Below, piece after piece: positions 43,598-50,545 of a DNA stretch of 64,000 nucleotides (positions are counted from its first letter, which is position 1; every line of letters begins with the position of its first letter). Position numbers and translations under genes: made by a program. The notes below the pieces were generated by a model. The model did not search any database. It was given only the letters and a program-made list of their open reading frames with translations, and was not told where the DNA came from. Origin of the DNA: Dehalococcoidia bacterium (GTDB lineage Bacteria > Chloroflexota > Dehalococcoidia > Lucifugimonadales > UBA3495); contig OY761558.1 in the NCBI GenBank assembly GCA_963664725.1, positions 3,075,361 to 3,139,360 of the forward strand, in the 5' to 3' direction.

Positions 43598-44554
43598 TTA
43601 CAATCCCTGTCCCACCGTGGCAATGAGGTTCAGGTTTCGTTCTATGGAGGCCTGTGCGTTGCCGCCGGCGGTCAGCGGGTGGGCCAGGACTTCGGTGGCT
43701 CCCCAGTCGAACAATTCCCGAAGGCGACCGGCCACCGTCTCCTCGTCACCCATCAGCACCACATCATCTATCATGCCATCGCTCCACGCTCCCTCCCGCG
43801 CTTCGGGGTGGCCGGACGCGGCGAACATCTCCTGGTAAAAAGGGGAGCGGGGGTAATTGGCAAGCTGGGCCCGAGCCGCTTCCCGCACTTCGTCCGGGTT
43901 GTCGTGAACGCACACCGGGGCGTGGGCCACCAGGGGAGGCGTCTCCCGACCGGCTCTCGTCGCACCCCGCTGCATCTCCGGTAGGGCCACGTCGCGCAGG
44001 TATTGGCCGGGGCACACCCAGCTTATGGCGCCGTCGGCCACCTCGCCGCACAGGCGGAAGGAGCGGCGGCGCAGGGCCGATGCCATTACCGGCACGTCTG
44101 GAGATGTCGGCCCTGGCAGGGAGGCGTGGCCGTGGTACTGGGAGCCATCATAGTCCACCTGGCCCTCCCACAGCAGGGCTTTAACCAGTTCTATGTACTC
44201 CCGCAGGTTGGTCAGCGGCGCTTCGTGCTCAATTCCGAACATGGGCTCGATGCTGACCTTGTGGCTGGGTCCCAGGCCCAGCCGGAACCGGCCCGGGGCC
44301 AACTGGGCTACAACCTGGGTCTGGGCCACGGACACGATGGGGTGGCGTGGGTATGTGGGTATGATGCTGGTGCCCAGCAGGATGCGGTCGGTGGTGGCCG
44401 CTGCTGCCGCGAAGGTTGTAAGGGCGTCTGGCCCCGCCCCGCCGGAAGTCAACCACGCCGCTTGTATGCCCCGGGCCTCCAGGTCCTGGATGCGGGCCAC
44501 CACGGTGGGAACGTCTCCCCCCATGGCCGCCACGCCTATTCGCTTTTCTGCCAT
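43598..44554 (-). CDS. LLM-class oxidoreductase, probably F420-dependent
   Basis: GIQAAWLTSGG...LLGTSIIPTYPRHPIVSVAQTQVVAQLAPGRFRLGLGPSH resembles the F420-dependent LLM subfamilies. Confidence 0.8.
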   Translation of the reverse strand: MAEKRIGVAAMGGDVPTVVARIQDLEARGIQAAWLTSGGAGPDALTTFAAAAATTDRILLGTSIIPTYPRHPIVSVAQTQVVAQLAPGRFRLGLGPSHKVSIEPMFGIEHEAPLTNLREYIELVKALLWEGQVDYDGSQYHGHASLPGPTSPDVPVMASALRRRSFRLCGEVADGAISWVCPGQYLRDVALPEMQRGATRAGRETPPLVAHAPVCVHDNPDEVREAARAQLANYPRSPFYQEMFAASGHPEAREGAWSDGMIDDVVLMGDEETVAGRLRELFDWGATEVLAHPLTAGGNAQASIERNLNLIATVGQGL

Positions 44555-44691
44555 TGTTTCACCTACTTTGCTATTCAGATTGGGGGCAGGTTAGCATTGG
44601 CGGTGGGGAATCGCAACCAGAAGTCGGGCACCGCAACCTGTTGGTTGAGAAAGTTTCTCCGCTTCGGGAAATAGCAGCCCTTGAGCGCAAT

Positions 44692-44730
44692 GGTTCCGTT
44701 CTAAATTGGGGTATGGAGATTTAGAGGGCC
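44692..44730. repeat. Left terminal inverted repeat GGTTCCGTTCTAAATTGGGGTATGGAGATTTAGAGGGCC
   Basis: Read directly from the sequence. It pairs with 49514-49552. Confidence 0.9.
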
Positions 44731-44785
44731 TATAGACGGCCCCCTGCTTTCCTTGCGGAAGGGGATATGCTAGTCTGACCCTGTC

Positions 44786-44959
44786 ATGAATTTAAGCGTT
44801 GCTGACCTGTGTGCCTGGCTCTTCCCTGTATTCTTGGGCACAACGCTGTTATCCCTTATTGGGTGGATGAAGCGTCCTTGGTGGGCATTGGCGGCGTCGA
44901 TTCTAGTAGCCGGTTTTTTTGGAGTTTTGTATATATTCCAACAGTGGCCACCAAGTTAA
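44786..44959 (+). CDS. Hypothetical 57-aa two-helix membrane peptide (passenger ORF, not in the ORF track)
   Basis: Hand translation gives MNLSVADLCAWLFPVFLGTTLLSLIGWMKRPWWALAASILVAGFFGVLYIFQQWPPS. It is preferred over the overlapping 44809..45024 track ORF. Confidence 0.3.
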   Translation: MNLSVADLCAWLFPVFLGTTLLSLIGWMKRPWWALAASILVAGFFGVLYIFQQWPPS

Positions 44960-45098
44960 CGCAAATCAGAAATCCTAGCAAAAAAAAGAATTCCCACTAC
45001 TCCATCAAGTGTCATTGTTACTGACCTCCTAAAATCTTCCCCTGTACTTGAGTCACTACCGTGCGTTGGGGCGTGTAAGAGCTTTGAGAGTTAAATTA

Positions 45099-45524
45099 AT
45101 GAAGTGGGGCCGACCTGCAATTAGAAACCTCTTGTATGTTCACTATCTTACATCTGGTTTATTGGCCCTGATGGCTTTCATTGCTGCATTCATGGAAGAA
45201 CCCACTGCGGAGGACCCTACCGCCAAAGCAGGCTTTTATGGTGGCTTAATCGTATTTTGCGTTACCAGTATAGCAATTCTGGAGGGGCTGAAGTCATCTA
45301 GCTCCATAGGTGAGAAGTGTAGGGTCATTGGTGTAAGAATTGGACTCCTAGCGGGTGCGTACTTATTGATCGCCGCCGCTGCTGGCGTTGCTCCATCTGA
45401 CTTGAACTTTCTTGCAGGTTTCACAGTAGTCTGGCTTTTGTCTGCCGTAGTTGTGCTTATACTTTTTGCATTTGTGCTCTGGAGTCACTGGAAAGCCCCA
45501 AAATCTGATGCTGACGGAAACTAA
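45099..45524 (+). CDS. Hypothetical multi-pass membrane protein (passenger)
   Basis: About four hydrophobic helices. AT-rich. The start at ATG 45099 (MKWGRP...) is more plausible than TTG 45048. Confidence 0.45.
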   Translation: MKWGRPAIRNLLYVHYLTSGLLALMAFIAAFMEEPTAEDPTAKAGFYGGLIVFCVTSIAILEGLKSSSSIGEKCRVIGVRIGLLAGAYLLIAAAAGVAPSDLNFLAGFTVVWLLSAVVVLILFAFVLWSHWKAPKSDADGN

Positions 45525-45536
45525 ACAGGATTTACG

Positions 45537-46034
45537 ATGGTTCGCCTATTCGTCTTGTTAGCGATTACGACAGTTGCCTTGTTGAGTTGTAGTTCAGCGG
45601 CTTCAGGGACAAGTCCTACTTCCATGGAGACCTGCAAGGACTGTGTTACGGCAGAGACTAATGAGCTTCGTATCGAGAACTGTGATGATTGCATTACCGC
45701 AGGGGAAATAATGAGGGCGTATGAGACTCCCGCCGTGAGAGAAAAACATCCCTACGATGGTAATCGATACAAAGTGGTCGGAACTATTACAGGCATTCAA
45801 AGGGGTATGGGGGTTTGCCCGTGTCCCGACACTTTTTGGATTAAGTCGGGCGGCGAGAAGGCAACCATCATTTTCCCTGACACCAATTTTGATAACGATG
45901 AGATTCTGGCTCCTTATGGGCGGGGTGACACAATTATCGCAAATTGTTTGGTGGAAGGTATCTTCGGATATACCGCGCTAGGCATCGGCATAAAAGATGG
46001 TAGACCTGCTTTCGCGGATTGCAAGATACCCTGA
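45537..46034 (+). CDS. Putative lipoprotein with an OB-fold (tRNA_anti-like) C-terminal part (passenger)
   Basis: Signal peptide plus lipobox (ALLSCSS). The C-terminal pattern YDGNRYKVVGTITGIQ...ATIIFPD...GDTIIANCLVEG...DCKI resembles OB-fold lipoproteins. Confidence 0.5.
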   Translation: MVRLFVLLAITTVALLSCSSAASGTSPTSMETCKDCVTAETNELRIENCDDCITAGEIMRAYETPAVREKHPYDGNRYKVVGTITGIQRGMGVCPCPDTFWIKSGGEKATIIFPDTNFDNDEILAPYGRGDTIIANCLVEGIFGYTALGIGIKDGRPAFADCKIP

Positions 46035-46164
46035 TAGTAAATCGAACTCTACTGTAGTCACCTAATCAACGGAAGATCCGACCACGAAGTCTGTCACCCC
46101 ATTTCCGCTCTCGTCATCCCCGCCCAGCTTGCCTTCCCGGAAGGGCCGGGATAGAATGAATCTG

Positions 46165-46458
46165 TTATGGTTCCAGCACCTCCCATAGAACTGTTTTATG
46201 CCGTCGCACTTCTGCAATCTCTTGCGATGATTGCCATAGTAATAACAGTAGAAAGAGAACGCCGACGAATACGGCGATACCTCCGACAATGGCACAGTTG
46301 CAGCCAATGCGATTTGCCTTATCTTCTTTGCCCTGTTCCTCCCCATCCCTACGGGGCATATACACCCACACAAGCCCCCCAGCAACCGCCATCACCATCC
46401 CAATCACAATCAACCATTGGGCAATAGCCCCAAGGGACTCCCAAAAGGATTCGACCAT
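46165..46458 (-). CDS. Hypothetical two-helix membrane protein downstream of the transposase (passenger)
   Basis: MVESFWESLGAIAQWLIVIGMVMAVAGGLVWVY...IVGGIAVFVGVLFLLLLLW. It starts 21 nt after the transposase stop. The longer track ORF would overlap the transposase gene. Confidence 0.4.
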   Translation of the reverse strand: MVESFWESLGAIAQWLIVIGMVMAVAGGLVWVYMPRRDGEEQGKEDKANRIGCNCAIVGGIAVFVGVLFLLLLLWQSSQEIAEVRRHKTVLWEVLEP

Positions 46459-46478
46459 AGTATGGGTTGGCCTCTGAC

Positions 46479-47555
46479 CTAGAGCCTTCCCCTGATTTCT
46501 CGCTTCTTGAGCCACGCCGGATTGCGGTTCTTCTTCCGCTTCGGCAGTTTCGGCGGTTCCTGCGCCAGTGTGCGTTTGGGCCTCCCCATTTCGCAAGCGG
46601 CCAGCCGTTCAGTCTTTGCCGGTTCTACCATCCCCACCACCCTGACCGGCTTGTTGGCGGTGGGGTGGATTCGTGGCTTCGGTACTTCCTTTGCTTCCGC
46701 GACCGCTGCACCTTCCTTCACCACGTCCGCCCATTCCCCATAGGGACTCTTGACCTTGGCAGCCTCCGCCGGGGTGCGGTCATTTATGCTTTCGTGTTCC
46801 CGAAAGAGATTGTAGGTCAGTGTCCACCTGTCCAGGTAACGCTGTCCTGACTCCAGACTGTCCAGCCCCCGCAGGGTTTTGATTCGCTGGCGGTACGTCC
46901 CCTGCAGGCGTTTCGACAGGTTGTTGTTGACCTCCGCTCGCATGCCGTCGCTCTGGACGTGCTTCGTGTTGGGAAAGACCAGACTAACGGCGGCGGGATA
47001 GCTGGCGAGGCGGTCGGTCTTGATGGTCTTGGGGTGTTCGGTGGCCGCGGCTTCGGCCCTCTCCATCACGGTTTCGGCGGCCTTCATATTCCGCTGTTTG
47101 GACAGGTGAGAGGCCAGAATGTAGCGGGTCTTGGCGTCCATCACGTTCCATAGCCACATCTTTTCCCCGCCCACCTGAACCTGCAATTCGTCCGCCACCC
47201 ATTCGGGTCCGGTGGTGGCCCGATACTGCAGGTCCCGCATAGTGGCGCTGGCCTTGTCGGTGTAGTCGCAAACCCAATAGTAGATGATGGACTTGGAGGG
47301 TTCGGGAATATCGAAGGCGTCCGCCATCGCCTCGCCAATCTGTTTGTAGGACATTCCGCTGTAGAACAACCGCACGGCCATACCGATCTGCTCTGCCGGA
47401 ACCTGTCGGCCCTCTGGTGTCCCATCGGCCCGGAATTTCTTTTCACATCCCCGGCAGAGGTAGCGTTGATAGCCGTTGCGCCGTCCGATTTTGACAACCT
47501 GGGCGGAATCACATTCAGGGCAACGGACGCTGTAGGTGGTGGTGAACTCGGCCAT
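46479..47555 (-). CDS. Transposase with an N-terminal zinc ribbon and a DDE domain, IS6/IS1595-like
   Basis: CPECDSAQVVKIGRRNGYQRYLCRGCEKKF zinc ribbon, then ADELQVQVGGEKMWLWNVMDAKTRYILASHLSKQRNMKAA...IKTDRLASYPAA...NNNLSKRLQGTYRQRIKTLRG, which resembles IS6-type DDE transposases. Confidence 0.8.
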   Translation of the reverse strand: MAEFTTTYSVRCPECDSAQVVKIGRRNGYQRYLCRGCEKKFRADGTPEGRQVPAEQIGMAVRLFYSGMSYKQIGEAMADAFDIPEPSKSIIYYWVCDYTDKASATMRDLQYRATTGPEWVADELQVQVGGEKMWLWNVMDAKTRYILASHLSKQRNMKAAETVMERAEAAATEHPKTIKTDRLASYPAAVSLVFPNTKHVQSDGMRAEVNNNLSKRLQGTYRQRIKTLRGLDSLESGQRYLDRWTLTYNLFREHESINDRTPAEAAKVKSPYGEWADVVKEGAAVAEAKEVPKPRIHPTANKPVRVVGMVEPAKTERLAACEMGRPKRTLAQEPPKLPKRKKNRNPAWLKKREIRGRL

Positions 47556-47826
47556 TATACCCCCGGTAGAAATGCAGGATGAGGGGTTGTTCCCGGTTGC
47601 CCGGGAGACTGCTATCATTCTAGCAGAGTCCGATGTGCGTTATGACAAGCCCTATCGGACAAGGGGAGTGCAGTAGAGGGCACATAGGTCTGCCAAGACC
47701 GGCTTGGCAATCCCCTGAAAAGGGGAAACCCCGGCGCGCAAACACCGGGGCACGCATTTCCAGCGGTTAGGGGCCGCTGAATCAGCTGATACCCGGATTA
47801 TGACCGGGGTTCGCTTAAGATGTCAA

Positions 47827-47867
47827 CTGCCCCGCCGCTCAAAATTGAACGGCGGGGCAGTTTGTGT
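47827..47867 (+). terminator. Strong hairpin inside the transposon, immediately before ORF 47888
   Basis: CTGCCCCGCCG-12 nt-CGGCGGGGCAG followed by TTTGTGT. No obvious upstream + strand gene exists for it to terminate. Confidence 0.4.
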
Positions 47868-47887
47868 CCCGCCCTCTGAGGTACATA

Positions 47888-48274
47888 ATGAGTGATTTAA
47901 TAGCAAAAGTCCTTGAGTTCCTGGAGGACGTGGCCAGCGATATGGGCGGGGGACAGGGCAACTACCTTTTGGGAAGCGTCCTTCGCACCTGCCTCGCTAC
48001 CACTTGGGGTCAGGCCACATTGGGGATTCTACGCCGACAGACCTATCCATTGGGGCGTTGGGCCGTCAACTCTCCCGCCGTAGAGAAGTTGGCGGTCGTC
48101 TTTGGGATATGTTTCTTGGCAACTGCTGGCCACGAAATCCTGACGGGGATACCGACTCCCATCGGTATGCAGCTTGCCCTTGTGGGGGTCATAGTCTATA
48201 TGATCCTTGTGAGCCTCTACCGTACAGGTAAAACCCTGTGCTGGGTCAAATGGCGTCAGCGCCGTAACACCTAA
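47888..48274 (+). CDS. Hypothetical membrane protein (passenger)
   Basis: GAGGT RBS precedes ATG 47888. C-terminal hydrophobic helices (LAVVFGICFLATAG..., MQLALVGVIVYMILVSL). Confidence 0.4.
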   Translation: MSDLIAKVLEFLEDVASDMGGGQGNYLLGSVLRTCLATTWGQATLGILRRQTYPLGRWAVNSPAVEKLAVVFGICFLATAGHEILTGIPTPIGMQLALVGVIVYMILVSLYRTGKTLCWVKWRQRRNT

Positions 48275-48311
48275 CTCGAAGGGGGGCGCAATCCCCCCTT
48301 CGGCACTTCCA

Positions 48312-48701
48312 TCACTTCCGCCGAATCAATTCATACAGGCCCCGCAGGGTGAGCAGTCCTCCCACACCAATCGCTCCCAAGACGACCATTATCAGCCGCC
48401 GGGGATTATTCCATACATCCAGTGGGTCTCTCCAAAGATAAGACGCCGCCATGAGTACCGTCCCCGCGATGAGCAAACCCAAGCCGCAATAGAGAGTGAC
48501 CAACGAACCAGCCTTTCGCTCTCTTTTGAATTCTTCCTGCTGTTCTGCCACCAGTTGCGGATTATCCCGCCTCACATCAGCAATGAGTCTTTCAGCTTGG
48601 CCGGGGTCGTACCCGCTGATGACTAGTTCGTTGCGAATTTCATGGTCAGACTTGCCATCCCGGAATAGGTCGAGGATGTAGCCGGTAGGGTCGGATGTCA
48701 T
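48312..48701 (-). CDS. Hypothetical protein with a soluble N-domain and two C-terminal TM helices (passenger)
   Basis: GGAGG RBS precedes ATG 48701. Sequence: MTSDPTGYILDLFRDGKSDHEIRNELVISGYDPGQAERLIADV... followed by two hydrophobic helices. Confidence 0.45.
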   Translation of the reverse strand: MTSDPTGYILDLFRDGKSDHEIRNELVISGYDPGQAERLIADVRRDNPQLVAEQQEEFKRERKAGSLVTLYCGLGLLIAGTVLMAASYLWRDPLDVWNNPRRLIMVVLGAIGVGGLLTLRGLYELIRRK

Positions 48702-48767
48702 AAAGGAACCTCCGTGAAATTGGGCATTGGGGGGCAAACGCACTTGCCCCCCCTTTGGGCTATGGGT

Positions 48768-49136
48768 TCAGAGCGGCAGTATTCGGGTGAAGAACGTCAC
48801 CAAAGGCCTAAGGATTAGGGAATTGGACGGGTAGTTCAGAACGTCAACGTAAACGTACAGACAGGCCCGGAGCGTCACCACCGAAACCACAGCAAAAACA
48901 ATCAGCCGGAAGGAGCGGTGCAGCCAATTGACCGCACCAAATACTCCAACAAGAATCCCTCCCGCCGTGAAGAGAATCCCAAGGGCGGCGGGAAGCAAGA
49001 ATACAAAGGTGATTCTCTGGCCGAAGATAAACCACAAGGCGAGTGAGACGCCCGTAGTTCCGACCAGAATGGCAATGCCGATGAAGAACAACCCCATACC
49101 GGGGTCGTCTGCAGATTGACGTGCAGGCGTACTCAT
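48768..49136 (-). CDS. Hypothetical four-helix membrane protein (passenger)
   Basis: GGGAGA RBS. Consecutive hydrophobic segments run through the 122 aa. Confidence 0.45.
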   Translation of the reverse strand: MSTPARQSADDPGMGLFFIGIAILVGTTGVSLALWFIFGQRITFVFLLPAALGILFTAGGILVGVFGAVNWLHRSFRLIVFAVVSVVTLRACLYVYVDVLNYPSNSLILRPLVTFFTRILPL

Positions 49137-49513
49137 TCCATATCTCCCAAGGCGTATTCGTGTGACCGACTTCGTAGCCGTACCAGGGCACGACTAATGA
49201 GCTAAATGGTCAGGCGAATAGACAAGGGATGGGGAACAGGGAATAGCGCACAGGGGCGGAATGGAACTGGGGAAAAGCGAGGTAGAGGACGGCTGTGGCC
49301 TTGGCTGTAACCAACGTAAGAAAGGCAGGGTGAAAACGCATACAGGAACCCCCACGCAGGAAAGGAATGTTGGCACCTGCGACAGCAACCGACAAACCCC
49401 AATGGGCCACGTGGGGGCACGAAGCCCCAACGTTCCATTACTGTTAAGACCCCTTGGAGAAAGGTGTTGCTGTCGCAGACCGTAGTATGCGTAAATGATG
49501 TTATATTGTCAAA

Positions 49514-49552
49514 GGCCCTCTAAATTTCCATACCCCAATTTAGAACGGAACC
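49514..49552. repeat. Right terminal inverted repeat GGCCCTCTAAATTTCCATACCCCAATTTAGAACGGAACC
   Basis: Read directly from the sequence. There is one mismatch to the reverse complement of IR-L. Confidence 0.9.
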
Positions 49553-49567
49553 AGCGCAATTTATTCC

Positions 49568-49596
49568 TTGACACCCCATCTAGCCCCTCATACAAT
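49568..49596 (+). promoter_or_regulatory. Near-consensus sigma-70 promoter for the SMP-30 gene, 8 nt from the transposon end
   Basis: TTGACA (49568-49573), 17-nt spacer, TACAAT (49591-49596). ATG 49613 follows about 10 nt after the predicted transcription start with no obvious RBS, suggesting a short-leader or leaderless mRNA. Confidence 0.5.
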
Positions 49597-49612
49597 CCCA
49601 CCCATCACACAA

Positions 49613-50545
49613 ATGGGAGTATCAACGTTGACCTGGGAATTTCAACGGGTTGCCGGTACCTACGGGAGCCCTGCAGATGGGCCGGTGTGGGATGGGGCGG
49701 CCTTGCTCTTTACTCAGCTCACCTATCCTTTTAACGCAGCCAATAACAGAATCCTCAGTTACGACCCGTCCACCGGGGCAGTTTCGGATTTCCGGCGGTG
49801 GACCAACCGCACCTGCGGGCTTGCTTTCTCCCAGTCGGGCGTTCTGTACGGGGCCCAGAGCGGCGGGCGCAGGCTGGTGCGGTTCAACGCCGACGGCAGC
49901 ACGTCACCCCTGGCCCACAAGCTCGATGGCGTCTACCACAACCAACCCAAAGACCTGGCGGTGGACAGCCGCGACCGCATCTGGTTCTGCGATCCCCACG
50001 GGGACCTGCGTGAGGCGATGAATCCCCAGATTCACGACAAACTGGACCACGCTTCGGTGTTGCGTCTGGAGGCGCCAACCCTGGACGCACCCATTACCCG
50101 CATCACCTATGACACCGATGCCCCCGCTGCCTTGCTCCTGTCTGCCGACGAGTCCACACTGTACGTGGCGGAAACCAGTGAGGAACCTGACGGGACTCGG
50201 GAGTTGCGGGCTTATCCTATTTTGGATACGGGAGCTTTGGGCCCATATCGCCTCCTACACACCTTTGGCGGGGATGGTGGCGGCAGCCGAGCATGCTCCC
50301 ACCGGGGCATCTACGGGATGTGCCTGGACCAGGAAGGCAACATTGTGGCGGTGGCCGGAGGTAAGGAAGCCGGACCCGGCCCTATGGCCTACGTAATCAC
50401 CCCGCAAGGGCGTATTATCCAGACCCATCCCTTGCCTGAGACGCCAACCAACTGCGCCTTCGGCGGCCCCAGTCTTGAGGACCTTTACGTGACGACCACT
50501 GACGGCAGCCTGTTCCGAGCTTTGGGAGTTGGTACCAGCACATAG
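49613..50545 (+). CDS. SMP-30/gluconolactonase/LRE-family protein
   Basis: Beta-propeller lactonase-like motifs (GPVWDG..., NQPKDLAVDSRDRIWFCDP, PTNCAFGGPSLEDLYVTT). The track start TTG 49568 coincides with the -35 box and is rejected. Confidence 0.85.
   Translation: MGVSTLTWEFQRVAGTYGSPADGPVWDGAALLFTQLTYPFNAANNRILSYDPSTGAVSDFRRWTNRTCGLAFSQSGVLYGAQSGGRRLVRFNADGSTSPLAHKLDGVYHNQPKDLAVDSRDRIWFCDPHGDLREAMNPQIHDKLDHASVLRLEAPTLDAPITRITYDTDAPAALLLSADESTLYVAETSEEPDGTRELRAYPILDTGALGPYRLLHTFGGDGGGSRACSHRGIYGMCLDQEGNIVAVAGGKEAGPGPMAYVITPQGRIIQTHPLPETPTNCAFGGPSLEDLYVTTTDGSLFRALGVGTST

Follow-up and report, generated by a model that had tools for sequence, protein, structure and literature searches.

The window analysed here, a 64,000-nucleotide (nt) stretch of a Dehalococcoidia bacterium (contig OY761558.1, positions 3,075,361 to 3,139,360), contains a 4,861-bp transposon (4,877 bp including both target duplications) between a gene for a luciferase-like oxidoreductase (43598-44554, minus strand) and a gene for an SMP-30/gluconolactonase-like (SGL) protein (49568-50545, plus strand). 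The element is bounded by 39-nt terminal inverted repeats, complementary at 38 of 39 positions: the left repeat, at the transposase-distal end, occupies 44692-44730 (plus strand) and begins GGTTCCGTTCTAAA, and the right repeat, at the transposase-upstream end, occupies 49514-49552 (minus strand). A repeat finder returned the same pair as 41-nt arms (44691-44731 and 49513-49553, 98% complementary), which are the 39-nt repeat extended by an ambiguous base at either end. The 25-nt terminus GGTTCCGTTCTAAATTGGGGTATGG occurs in the window at these two sites only, on opposite strands, and in none of 100 shuffled sequences; a search inside the element found no partial copies of it. Directly outside the repeats lie two copies of the 8-mer AGCGCAAT (44684-44691 and 49553-49560), which is found four times in the window; the chance of identical 8 bases outside both ends is 4^-8. 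Within the repeats, a sole transposase gene (46479-47555, minus strand) is accompanied by seven passenger open reading frames (ORFs), A to G, and a possible eighth of 43 amino acids. The left third (44.7-46.1 kb) has a G+C content of 44-49%, compared with 54-62% for the remainder of the element and 61-70% for its flanks. The repeats and their 38/39 match, the duplicated 8-mer, the AT-richer left third and the seven passengers had all been described in an original prediction made from the DNA letters, and each was recovered here. The element is a real, intact transposon of an IS6-like insertion sequence (IS) lineage that is common in Chloroflexota, and we consider it very probable that it is an autonomous transporter IS whose single transposase moves a mosaic cargo, with a leader RNA placed before the first cargo gene.

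The sequence context shows what the site looks like without the insert. Homologues of the luciferase-like flank gene, 90-94% identical, come from Chloroflexota assemblies, and at two related loci, L084 and L085 (labels of this form denote related loci), the flank genes are 94% and 92% identical to those of the window. Both loci keep the order halogenase, luciferase-like, luciferase-like and, in divergent orientation, SGL and MDMPI_N, with just 353 or 205 bp between the divergent pair and no repeats. Because the orthologous spot is short and free of repeats, the site is empty there. At neither locus do the repeats persist without the insert, the pattern that the original prediction had singled out as speaking against transposition. 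A reconstructed empty site, made of the window's flanks and one copy of the 8-mer, aligns colinearly with L085 across the junction. The SGL promoter, TTGACA-N17-TACAAT, is conserved in both L084 and L085 and lies 7 bp from the insertion point. The insertion, apparently a recent one, thus separates two ordinary metabolic genes at their divergent promoter region. An unrelated 204-residue ORF occupies the same intergenic region of a third related genome (L086 3012-4000), and foreign DNA may land repeatedly in this promoter region.

The same kind of unit is widespread among relatives. A scan of one genome per species gave 79 loci, all from Dehalococcoidia or Chloroflexota assemblies, and the full set consists of 82 related loci and the window, 83 in total. 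A GGTTCCGTT-type repeat pair surrounds the transposase gene in 60 of the 83, and perfect 8-bp duplications flank 34 of those 60 (window included). These 34 elements measure 1,366-11,493 bp, with a median of about 3.5 kb, and the window element ranks 28th among them. At L001 the transposase is 95% identical, B, C, D, the transposase gene, F and G are kept at 92% nucleotide identity, and the same terminus adjoins the cargo in a different flank, while blocks A and E are replaced; homology stops at window position 49451, and the other end was not seen before the end of the contig. L002, with a transposase 71% identical, has the same terminus, the perfect duplication GCAAGCTA and a type IIG-like methyltransferase as cargo in 4,331 bp; L003 (72% identical, 2,502 bp) carries two small membrane proteins. 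Three sets of copies are 100% identical at different sites: L014 and L015 (2,716 bp), L021, L022 and L018 (3,364 bp), and L045 and L061 (1,461 bp). In each set homology ends exactly at the repeats, and the 8-bp duplications are perfect at L014, L015, L021 and L045, match at 7/8 positions at L022 and at 4/8 at L018 and L061. Since identical cargo-bearing copies stand at different sites, the whole unit moves.

Together with the empty sites and the copy at L001, these relatives with shared termini and 8-bp duplications support the transposition event that had been read from the window alone. The element had also been called an atypical, cargo-carrying IS. That holds against the curated IS6 members, but not within the Chloroflexota clade, where cargo is the rule; a literature search found no description of this clade. 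As a separate observation, L001 (1-190 and 4578-4743) is rearranged or decaying: one end is without the repeat, the promoter and the 5' arm of the stem that closes the leader, and other DNA takes the place of blocks A and E.

The transposase is a 358-residue protein with an N-terminal Cys4 zinc ribbon (C12, C15, C34, C37) and a DDE core (D122, D181, E215) that is followed by R222 at +7; an extension of about 90 residues forms its C-terminus. Across an alignment of 36 homologues, the four cysteines, D122, D181 and R222 do not vary and the conservation of E215 is 90% or more, and the gene has a ratio of nonsynonymous to synonymous substitution rates (dN/dS) of 0.15 against L001. The zinc ribbon and DDE protein first proposed, and its status as the only transposase, are thus borne out by domain matches and the ORF list. 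The NCBIfam IS6 model NF033587 is passed marginally (127 bits, cutoff 125), and the best domain is Pfam DDE_Tnp_IS240 (65 bits, cutoff 27, E 8e-18), with an additional match to Zn_ribbon_InsA. The IS1 transposase model reaches 63.5 bits, below its cutoff of 100, and the zinc-domain model shared by IS1 and IS1595, NF050000, matches the N-terminal zinc ribbon only (42.6 bits); no IS1595 transposase model is among the NCBIfam matches to the protein, and its DDE core is left unmatched by that family. A homologue search returned 978 proteins, typically of 350-370 residues, of which one was named, as an IS6 family transposase of Dehalococcoidia. Among annotated plasmid proteins, the closest relatives are IS6-like transposases of the ISCpe7 type, which share 29% identity with the window transposase over residues 11-266. 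The terminus GGTTCCGTTCTAAA agrees with the IS6/IS26 consensus GGTTCTGTTGCAAA (PMC6807381) at 11 of 14 positions, G1, G2 and G7 among them. The initial assignment to an "IS6/IS1595 type", and the resemblance of the terminus to IS6 ends noted with it, therefore survive in their IS6 part, and the IS1595 part comes down to the zinc domain. The Tn3 family was considered and rejected, as no ORF has the large TnpA or resolvase domains and the duplication is 8 bp, not 5 bp.

How the element is classified depends on how broadly IS6 is drawn. In the broad sense used by ISfinder it has the features of the family, namely the profile match, the DDE triad with R at +7, the GG/G7 termini and the 8-bp duplication, but it departs from the compactness of that family (0.7-0.9 kb, up to 1.7 kb in the long clades, with the transposase gene alone) by its 4,861 bp and seven to eight passengers. 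In the strict sense of Harmer and Hall 2019, an IS6/IS26 transposase has 213-254 residues, an H-HTH domain, no zinc finger and an E-(D/S)H---K signature (PMC6807381). The protein here falls outside that definition with its 358 residues, its Cys4 ribbon and its lack of E-(D/S)H---K. The element does conform to the definition of a transporter IS (tIS): there is one transposase gene, the passengers lie inside the repeats, and movement of the unit is seen in relatives. The best classification is a transporter IS within the long zinc-finger branch of IS6 in the broad sense, nearest to ISDsp3 and ISCpe7.

ISDsp3, from Dehalococcoides sp. BAV1, is the sole IS6-family transporter IS listed by Varani et al. 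2021 (PMC7986276). It shares with the window element the host class, long repeats (28/36 in ISDsp3), an 8-bp duplication, a long transposase (319 residues) and an internal passenger (PMC7986276, PMC6807381). Compared through its published description, it differs in being 1,456 bp long with one hypothetical passenger, and it reportedly lacks an intact zinc finger. The element described here measures 4,861 bp, carries seven or eight passengers to either side of the transposase gene and has both an intact Cys4 ribbon and a leader RNA. The clostridial ISCpe7 and ISCbo1 (clade h of Varani et al., clade VII of Harmer and Hall) likewise combine a zinc finger with a DDE core and make 8-bp duplications, but they are 1.2-1.35 kb long, carry no cargo, mostly do not start with GG, belong to another phylum and show low identity (29%). 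With IS26 and IS257 the element has in common the terminus (GGTTC-GTT---AAA against GGTTCTGTTGCAAA, with G1, G2 and G7), a -35-like box in the repeat and the 8-bp duplication. Those elements are 0.8 kb, with 14-bp repeats and a transposase of 213-254 residues that has the E-(D/S)H---K signature and no zinc finger, and their cargo lies only between two copies, in pseudo-compound transposons; here the cargo is inside one copy.

Three passengers read inward from the left repeat. A (44786-44959, plus strand) is a putative ORF of 57 residues with two membrane-like segments and no family match; B (45099-45524, plus strand) encodes 141 residues with four such segments and is 82% identical in L001 (dN/dS 0.26); and C (45537-46034, plus strand) encodes a 165-residue lipoprotein, with a signal peptide followed by Cys and a predicted OB-fold, probably of the tRNA_anti-like family (dN/dS 0.50). 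D (46165-46458, minus strand; 97 residues, two membrane-like segments) starts 20 nt past the transposase stop; it is conserved in L001 with a dN/dS of about 1 on just nine substitutions, and its coding status is uncertain. E (47888-48274, plus strand; 128 residues, two membrane-like segments) is divergent from the transposase gene; a homologue stands at the same position in L005 at 44% identity. F (48312-48701, minus strand) encodes 129 residues, a soluble N-terminal part followed by two membrane-like segments, and is 91% identical in L001 (dN/dS 0.28), and G (48768-49136, minus strand) encodes 122 residues with three to four membrane-like segments (dN/dS 0.20 against L001) and has a relative in L003 at 38% protein identity. 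By their dN/dS against L001 (0.20-0.28), B, F and G are judged to be real genes. A and E have no counterpart in L001.

Hydrophobic, membrane-like segments are present in all seven passengers, in keeping with the first description of the cargo as small membrane proteins and one OB-fold lipoprotein. Such segments occur in 35% of small cargo ORFs and 11% of small flank ORFs (Fisher p = 4e-8), a crude control that includes spurious ORFs. The prediction had also held that no passenger could be assigned to a family. This stands for six of the seven, for which Pfam, NCBIfam, PADLOC and PHROGs gave no function: the Pfam and NCBIfam matches to passengers were sub-threshold holin, pilin and DUF hits on which we do not rely, PADLOC found nothing significant, and PHROGs matched only D and F weakly (E 0.003-0.007). 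It probably does not stand for C. Alone, C scores a weak 16.6 bits against Pfam PF12869 (tRNA_anti-like; cutoff 23.5), but six of seven members of its family match PF12869, the best with an E of 3.7e-11. For an AlphaFold2 model of C built on a seven-sequence alignment, the predicted local distance difference test score (pLDDT) is 68-89 across residues 51-165. The PDB entry that matches this model best is 3f1z, a putative nucleic-acid-binding lipoprotein, at a target-normalised TM-score of 0.67; without an alignment the model was uninformative (pLDDT 41). The C family is small, with just six remote homologues among 1.84 billion representative proteins, and a k-mer homologue search returned C itself alone. 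One of the remote homologues sits among other transposase genes and not inside an IS6-like element.

Synonymous divergence from L001 ranges from 0.03 in D to 0.39 in B, and these several-fold differences between blocks mark the unit as a recombination mosaic. The load of small membrane proteins and one predicted OB-fold lipoprotein is a mosaic that recombines, and not the coherent module that had been thought possible: A and E are swapped in L001, E recurs in L005, and G together with its leader RNA is inverted in L003. Other relatives carry other loads. A fusion of an N6_N4 methyltransferase with HNH stands just upstream of the transposase gene, usually on the same strand, in 13 loci (including L007, L011, L017, L019, L021/L022, L025, L033, L039, L040, L042, L057 and L063), and large N6_Mtase/Eco57I-like proteins are found in four (L002, L023, L033 and L035).

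Inside the right repeat lies a 380-nt non-coding stretch that contains a structured leader RNA. An inward-reading promoter-like site, TTGACA-N17-CATACT (49484-49512, minus strand), adjoins the repeat, and its -10 box is conserved in L003 and L005, in which the block that follows the promoter is about 78% identical; the protein encoded downstream, by contrast, is just 38% identical between the window and L003. The leader RNA of about 140 nt (49343-49484, minus strand), identified by covariance models, folding and covariation, consists of a multi-helix domain enclosed by a long closing stem, and the ribosome-binding site at the 3' end of the RNA pairs with an internal C-run; the long hairpin at 49372-49481 is this closing stem and not a separate feature. 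Its minimum free energy (MFE) is -66 kcal/mol, with a z-score of -4.2 on the minus strand and -1.8 on the plus strand. Two covariance models (R1 and R2, iterated once) searched in 83 sources gave 34 matches, a few of them weak or antisense; examples are L005 8562-8712, L003 1298-1442, L014 8889-9034 and L051 8230-8371, with about 25 more loci. Over 33 distinct sequences, 86% of cells are paired, compared with 38-45% when the partners are slid. Both sides have changed in 45 of 48 pairs, and at one position of the closing stem each of the four Watson-Crick combinations is seen. Only on the inward-reading strand are G-U pairs frequent. The internal run CCCCCACG, found independently of the model, is complementary to the 3' tail CGTGGGGG, and the two covary (UUG with CAA, UUUG with CAAA, CCUCCU with AGGAGG), with a median Watson-Crick run of 8 nt, compared with 3.7 when the tail is shuffled. 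The next ORF begins 0-2 nt past the end of the model in most relatives, which makes the leader's G-run its Shine-Dalgarno (SD) sequence.

The leader always reads inward. The model usually starts 35-37 nt from the outer end of a repeat, and in most relatives the leader lies 35-68 nt from a repeat end. Where cargo occupies the transposase-upstream end, the leader is found at that end; where cargo is downstream (L028, L050), it is found at the opposite one. In L003, L004, L081 and L082, copies are found deeper in the element or inverted, always before an ORF. The genes that follow are unrelated to one another and include Pro/Thr-rich lipoproteins and three-segment membrane proteins. An ORF was rejected as the cause of the conservation, the ATG at 49438 being absent in L003 and L005 and the indels not being multiples of three. 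In the window, the G-run (GGGGG) is followed after 7 nt by the ATG of the possible 43-residue ORF (49210-49341, minus strand), and G starts 206 nt later. L003 and L001 have an ATG at the same position, but conservation of the peptide is poor, with seven nonsynonymous and three synonymous changes against L001 (counted by eye), and it may be a relic or a leader peptide. Rfam gave no match at E <= 1 for the element and three relatives, and nothing at gathering score across the window.

Translational riboswitches and RNA thermometers are leaders that sequester the SD sequence. The transposon leader resembles them in its closing stem, multi-helix domain and anti-SD run pairing before the start codon; it differs in having no Rfam match, no known ligand or signal, unrelated genes behind it and a transposon with which it travels. 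At many loci (for example L053 8144-8183 and L014 8853-8892) the repeat contains TTGCTT or TTGCCT, with TAGCAT or TAGAAT about 17-18 nt further inward. On their sequence these would form an inward promoter-like site at the cargo end, reminiscent of the bidirectional -35 box of IS26-type repeats. One tentative idea is that this Chloroflexota lineage is built for cargo, with end promoters whose -35 box lies in the repeat feeding an SD-sequestering leader of about 140 nt behind which unrelated genes are plugged, and that the leader represents a new class of cis-regulatory RNA which switches in response to an unknown signal or to the transposase. If so, the transposon would gain a portable, conditional expression platform for whatever gene it has picked up.

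The remaining control elements lie around the transposase gene. On the minus strand, the order from the right repeat is promoter, leader RNA, small ORF, G and F; E follows on the opposite strand, and a G+C-rich hairpin read from the sequence lies between the convergent E and F (48277-48302). Beyond E come a hairpin with 18-nt arms returned by the repeat finder (47825-47862), at which the L001 homology breaks, the promoter-like site of the transposase gene, TTGACA-N18-CATAAT (47797-47826, minus strand), conserved in L003 and L051, and a structured 5' leader of about 240 nt made of consecutive hairpins (47556-47796, minus strand; MFE -100 kcal/mol, z -4.2), followed by the transposase gene and D. 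This leader is partly conserved, with compensatory changes, in L003 and L051, and may be a second regulatory RNA.

In the mechanism we propose, the single transposase recognises the GGTTCC... terminal repeats, moves everything between them as a unit and generates the 8-bp duplication; in the window the element landed in the promoter region between the luciferase-like and SGL genes. By analogy with the IS6 family, the chemistry would be replicative copy-in that leads to a cointegrate, which host recombination would then resolve. The promoter inside the transposase-upstream repeat would drive the leader RNA, whose anti-SD run would pair with the ribosome-binding site of the first downstream ORF and so hold translation of the first cargo gene off or make it conditional. 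The transposase gene would have its own promoter and long structured leader behind an insulating hairpin.

Several points weigh against this account. Copy-in is an extrapolation for this element, as Harmer and Hall report no experimental data for the long zinc-finger IS6-like elements (PMC6807381); the transposase scores just 2 bits over the cutoff of the IS6 model, and the IS6/IS26 signature after the catalytic E is absent from its sequence, which reads E215-R-L-Q-G-T-Y-R222 with no histidine. The 64-kb window has no second copy of the element. The check for empty sites that had been proposed succeeded in that L084 and L085 lack the insert, but these sites are diverged and the exact 8-mer AGCGCAAT is not conserved in them, so that a single-copy target site is presumed; exact-match 22-mer scans for an empty site found none in genome contigs or metagenome contigs, and the 25-mer repeat terminus had no match in the JGI metagenomes. 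Exact-protein look-ups with the transposase, in forms of 358 and 379 residues, with the flank gene and with P0121, the twin of C, likewise gave no match. Six of the seven passengers are without an assigned function, it is unclear which gene the leader controls in the window, where the first ORF behind it is the poorly conserved one of 43 residues, and the covariation alignments were fitted to the model and so favour the structure.

Some of these points also bear on the choice between copy-in and another route. The same element could have made a simple insertion by cut-and-paste or copy-out-paste-in. Simple insertions with perfect direct 8-bp duplications make up most of the relatives, and any DDE pathway gives such duplications; the transposase, about 29% identical to the nearest named IS6-like element, is without the IS6/IS26 motif (PMC6807381). 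Identical copies that persist within one genome at two or three sites (L014/L015, L021/L022, L045/L061) fit replication, however, and 26 of the 60 repeat pairs are without a matching duplication, as after intramolecular copy-in, although mis-paired ends could give the same picture. Every tested IS6 member forms cointegrates (PMC7986276, PMC8722142). We regard the simple-insertion chemistry as possible, yet the less probable course. That the structure is instead a composite or an accident, a small IS between solo repeat relics with passengers that are not mobilised, is hardly credible. Two transposase genes or fragments in L028, L025, L075 and L080 make a composite origin of the cargo plausible, but within the element we found no repeat-like sequence and hence no sign of a small internal IS; the 8-bp duplication is at the outer ends, the empty sites lack the whole 4.86 kb, L001 has the same cargo and terminus elsewhere, and identical loaded units stand at several sites in relatives.

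Membership of IS1595 or IS1 rather than IS6 is very unlikely. IS1595 elements also make 8-bp duplications, and the zinc ribbon matches the model that IS1 and IS1595 share, with the IS1 model scoring as well; but the IS1 score falls below its cutoff, no IS1595 model matches the DDE core, and the passed IS6 model, the best domain, the termini and the annotated IS6 and ISCpe7 relatives all point the other way. The leader could also be a feature of the DNA, for instance a set of subterminal binding sites for the transposase, or no more than a stabilising 5' hairpin that does not switch. It mostly lies where subterminal binding sites would be expected, 35-68 nt from the repeat end, and the downstream genes are too diverse for a metabolite-specific riboswitch. 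We nevertheless think this improbable, given the pairing kept by compensatory changes, the G-U pairs confined to the inward-reading strand, the far better folding of that strand, the covarying anti-SD:SD pairing, and the copies deep inside or inverted that always precede an ORF. A transporter IS with an RNA leader ahead of its cargo thus remains the reading we prefer.

The IS6 family is known for spreading resistance genes that are held between two IS copies. In the Chloroflexota lineage, single-copy carriage of 1-10 kb of cargo is the norm, and identical loaded copies stand at several sites, from which it follows that an IS6-type transposase can serve as a general gene vehicle in an abundant, poorly studied environmental phylum. 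Small envelope proteins and DNA methyltransferase-HNH fusions are the typical loads. For the window alone the practical result is modest; what goes beyond a routine IS call is the clade-wide carriage of cargo and a conserved leader RNA missing from Rfam, which is a testable candidate for a new riboregulator and a possible handle for finding cargo cassettes in metagenomes.

Two further sets of loci bear on how such elements may acquire and rearrange DNA. L028 (9559-14264) is a duplication-flanked element with a second, inverted transposase gene, and L025 (6372-16212) is a duplication-flanked element with transposase fragments; their content hints at capture of cargo through the fusion of two copies, one of which then decays. 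L039 (4478-11285) and L053 (8144-11156), both on OZ244824.1, are diverged, inverted copies about 31.6 kb apart. Their right-flank 8-mers, CGAAATTG and CAATTTCG, are reverse complements, as if one duplication bracketed 41 kb, a pattern that could reflect a composite move, an inversion or chance.

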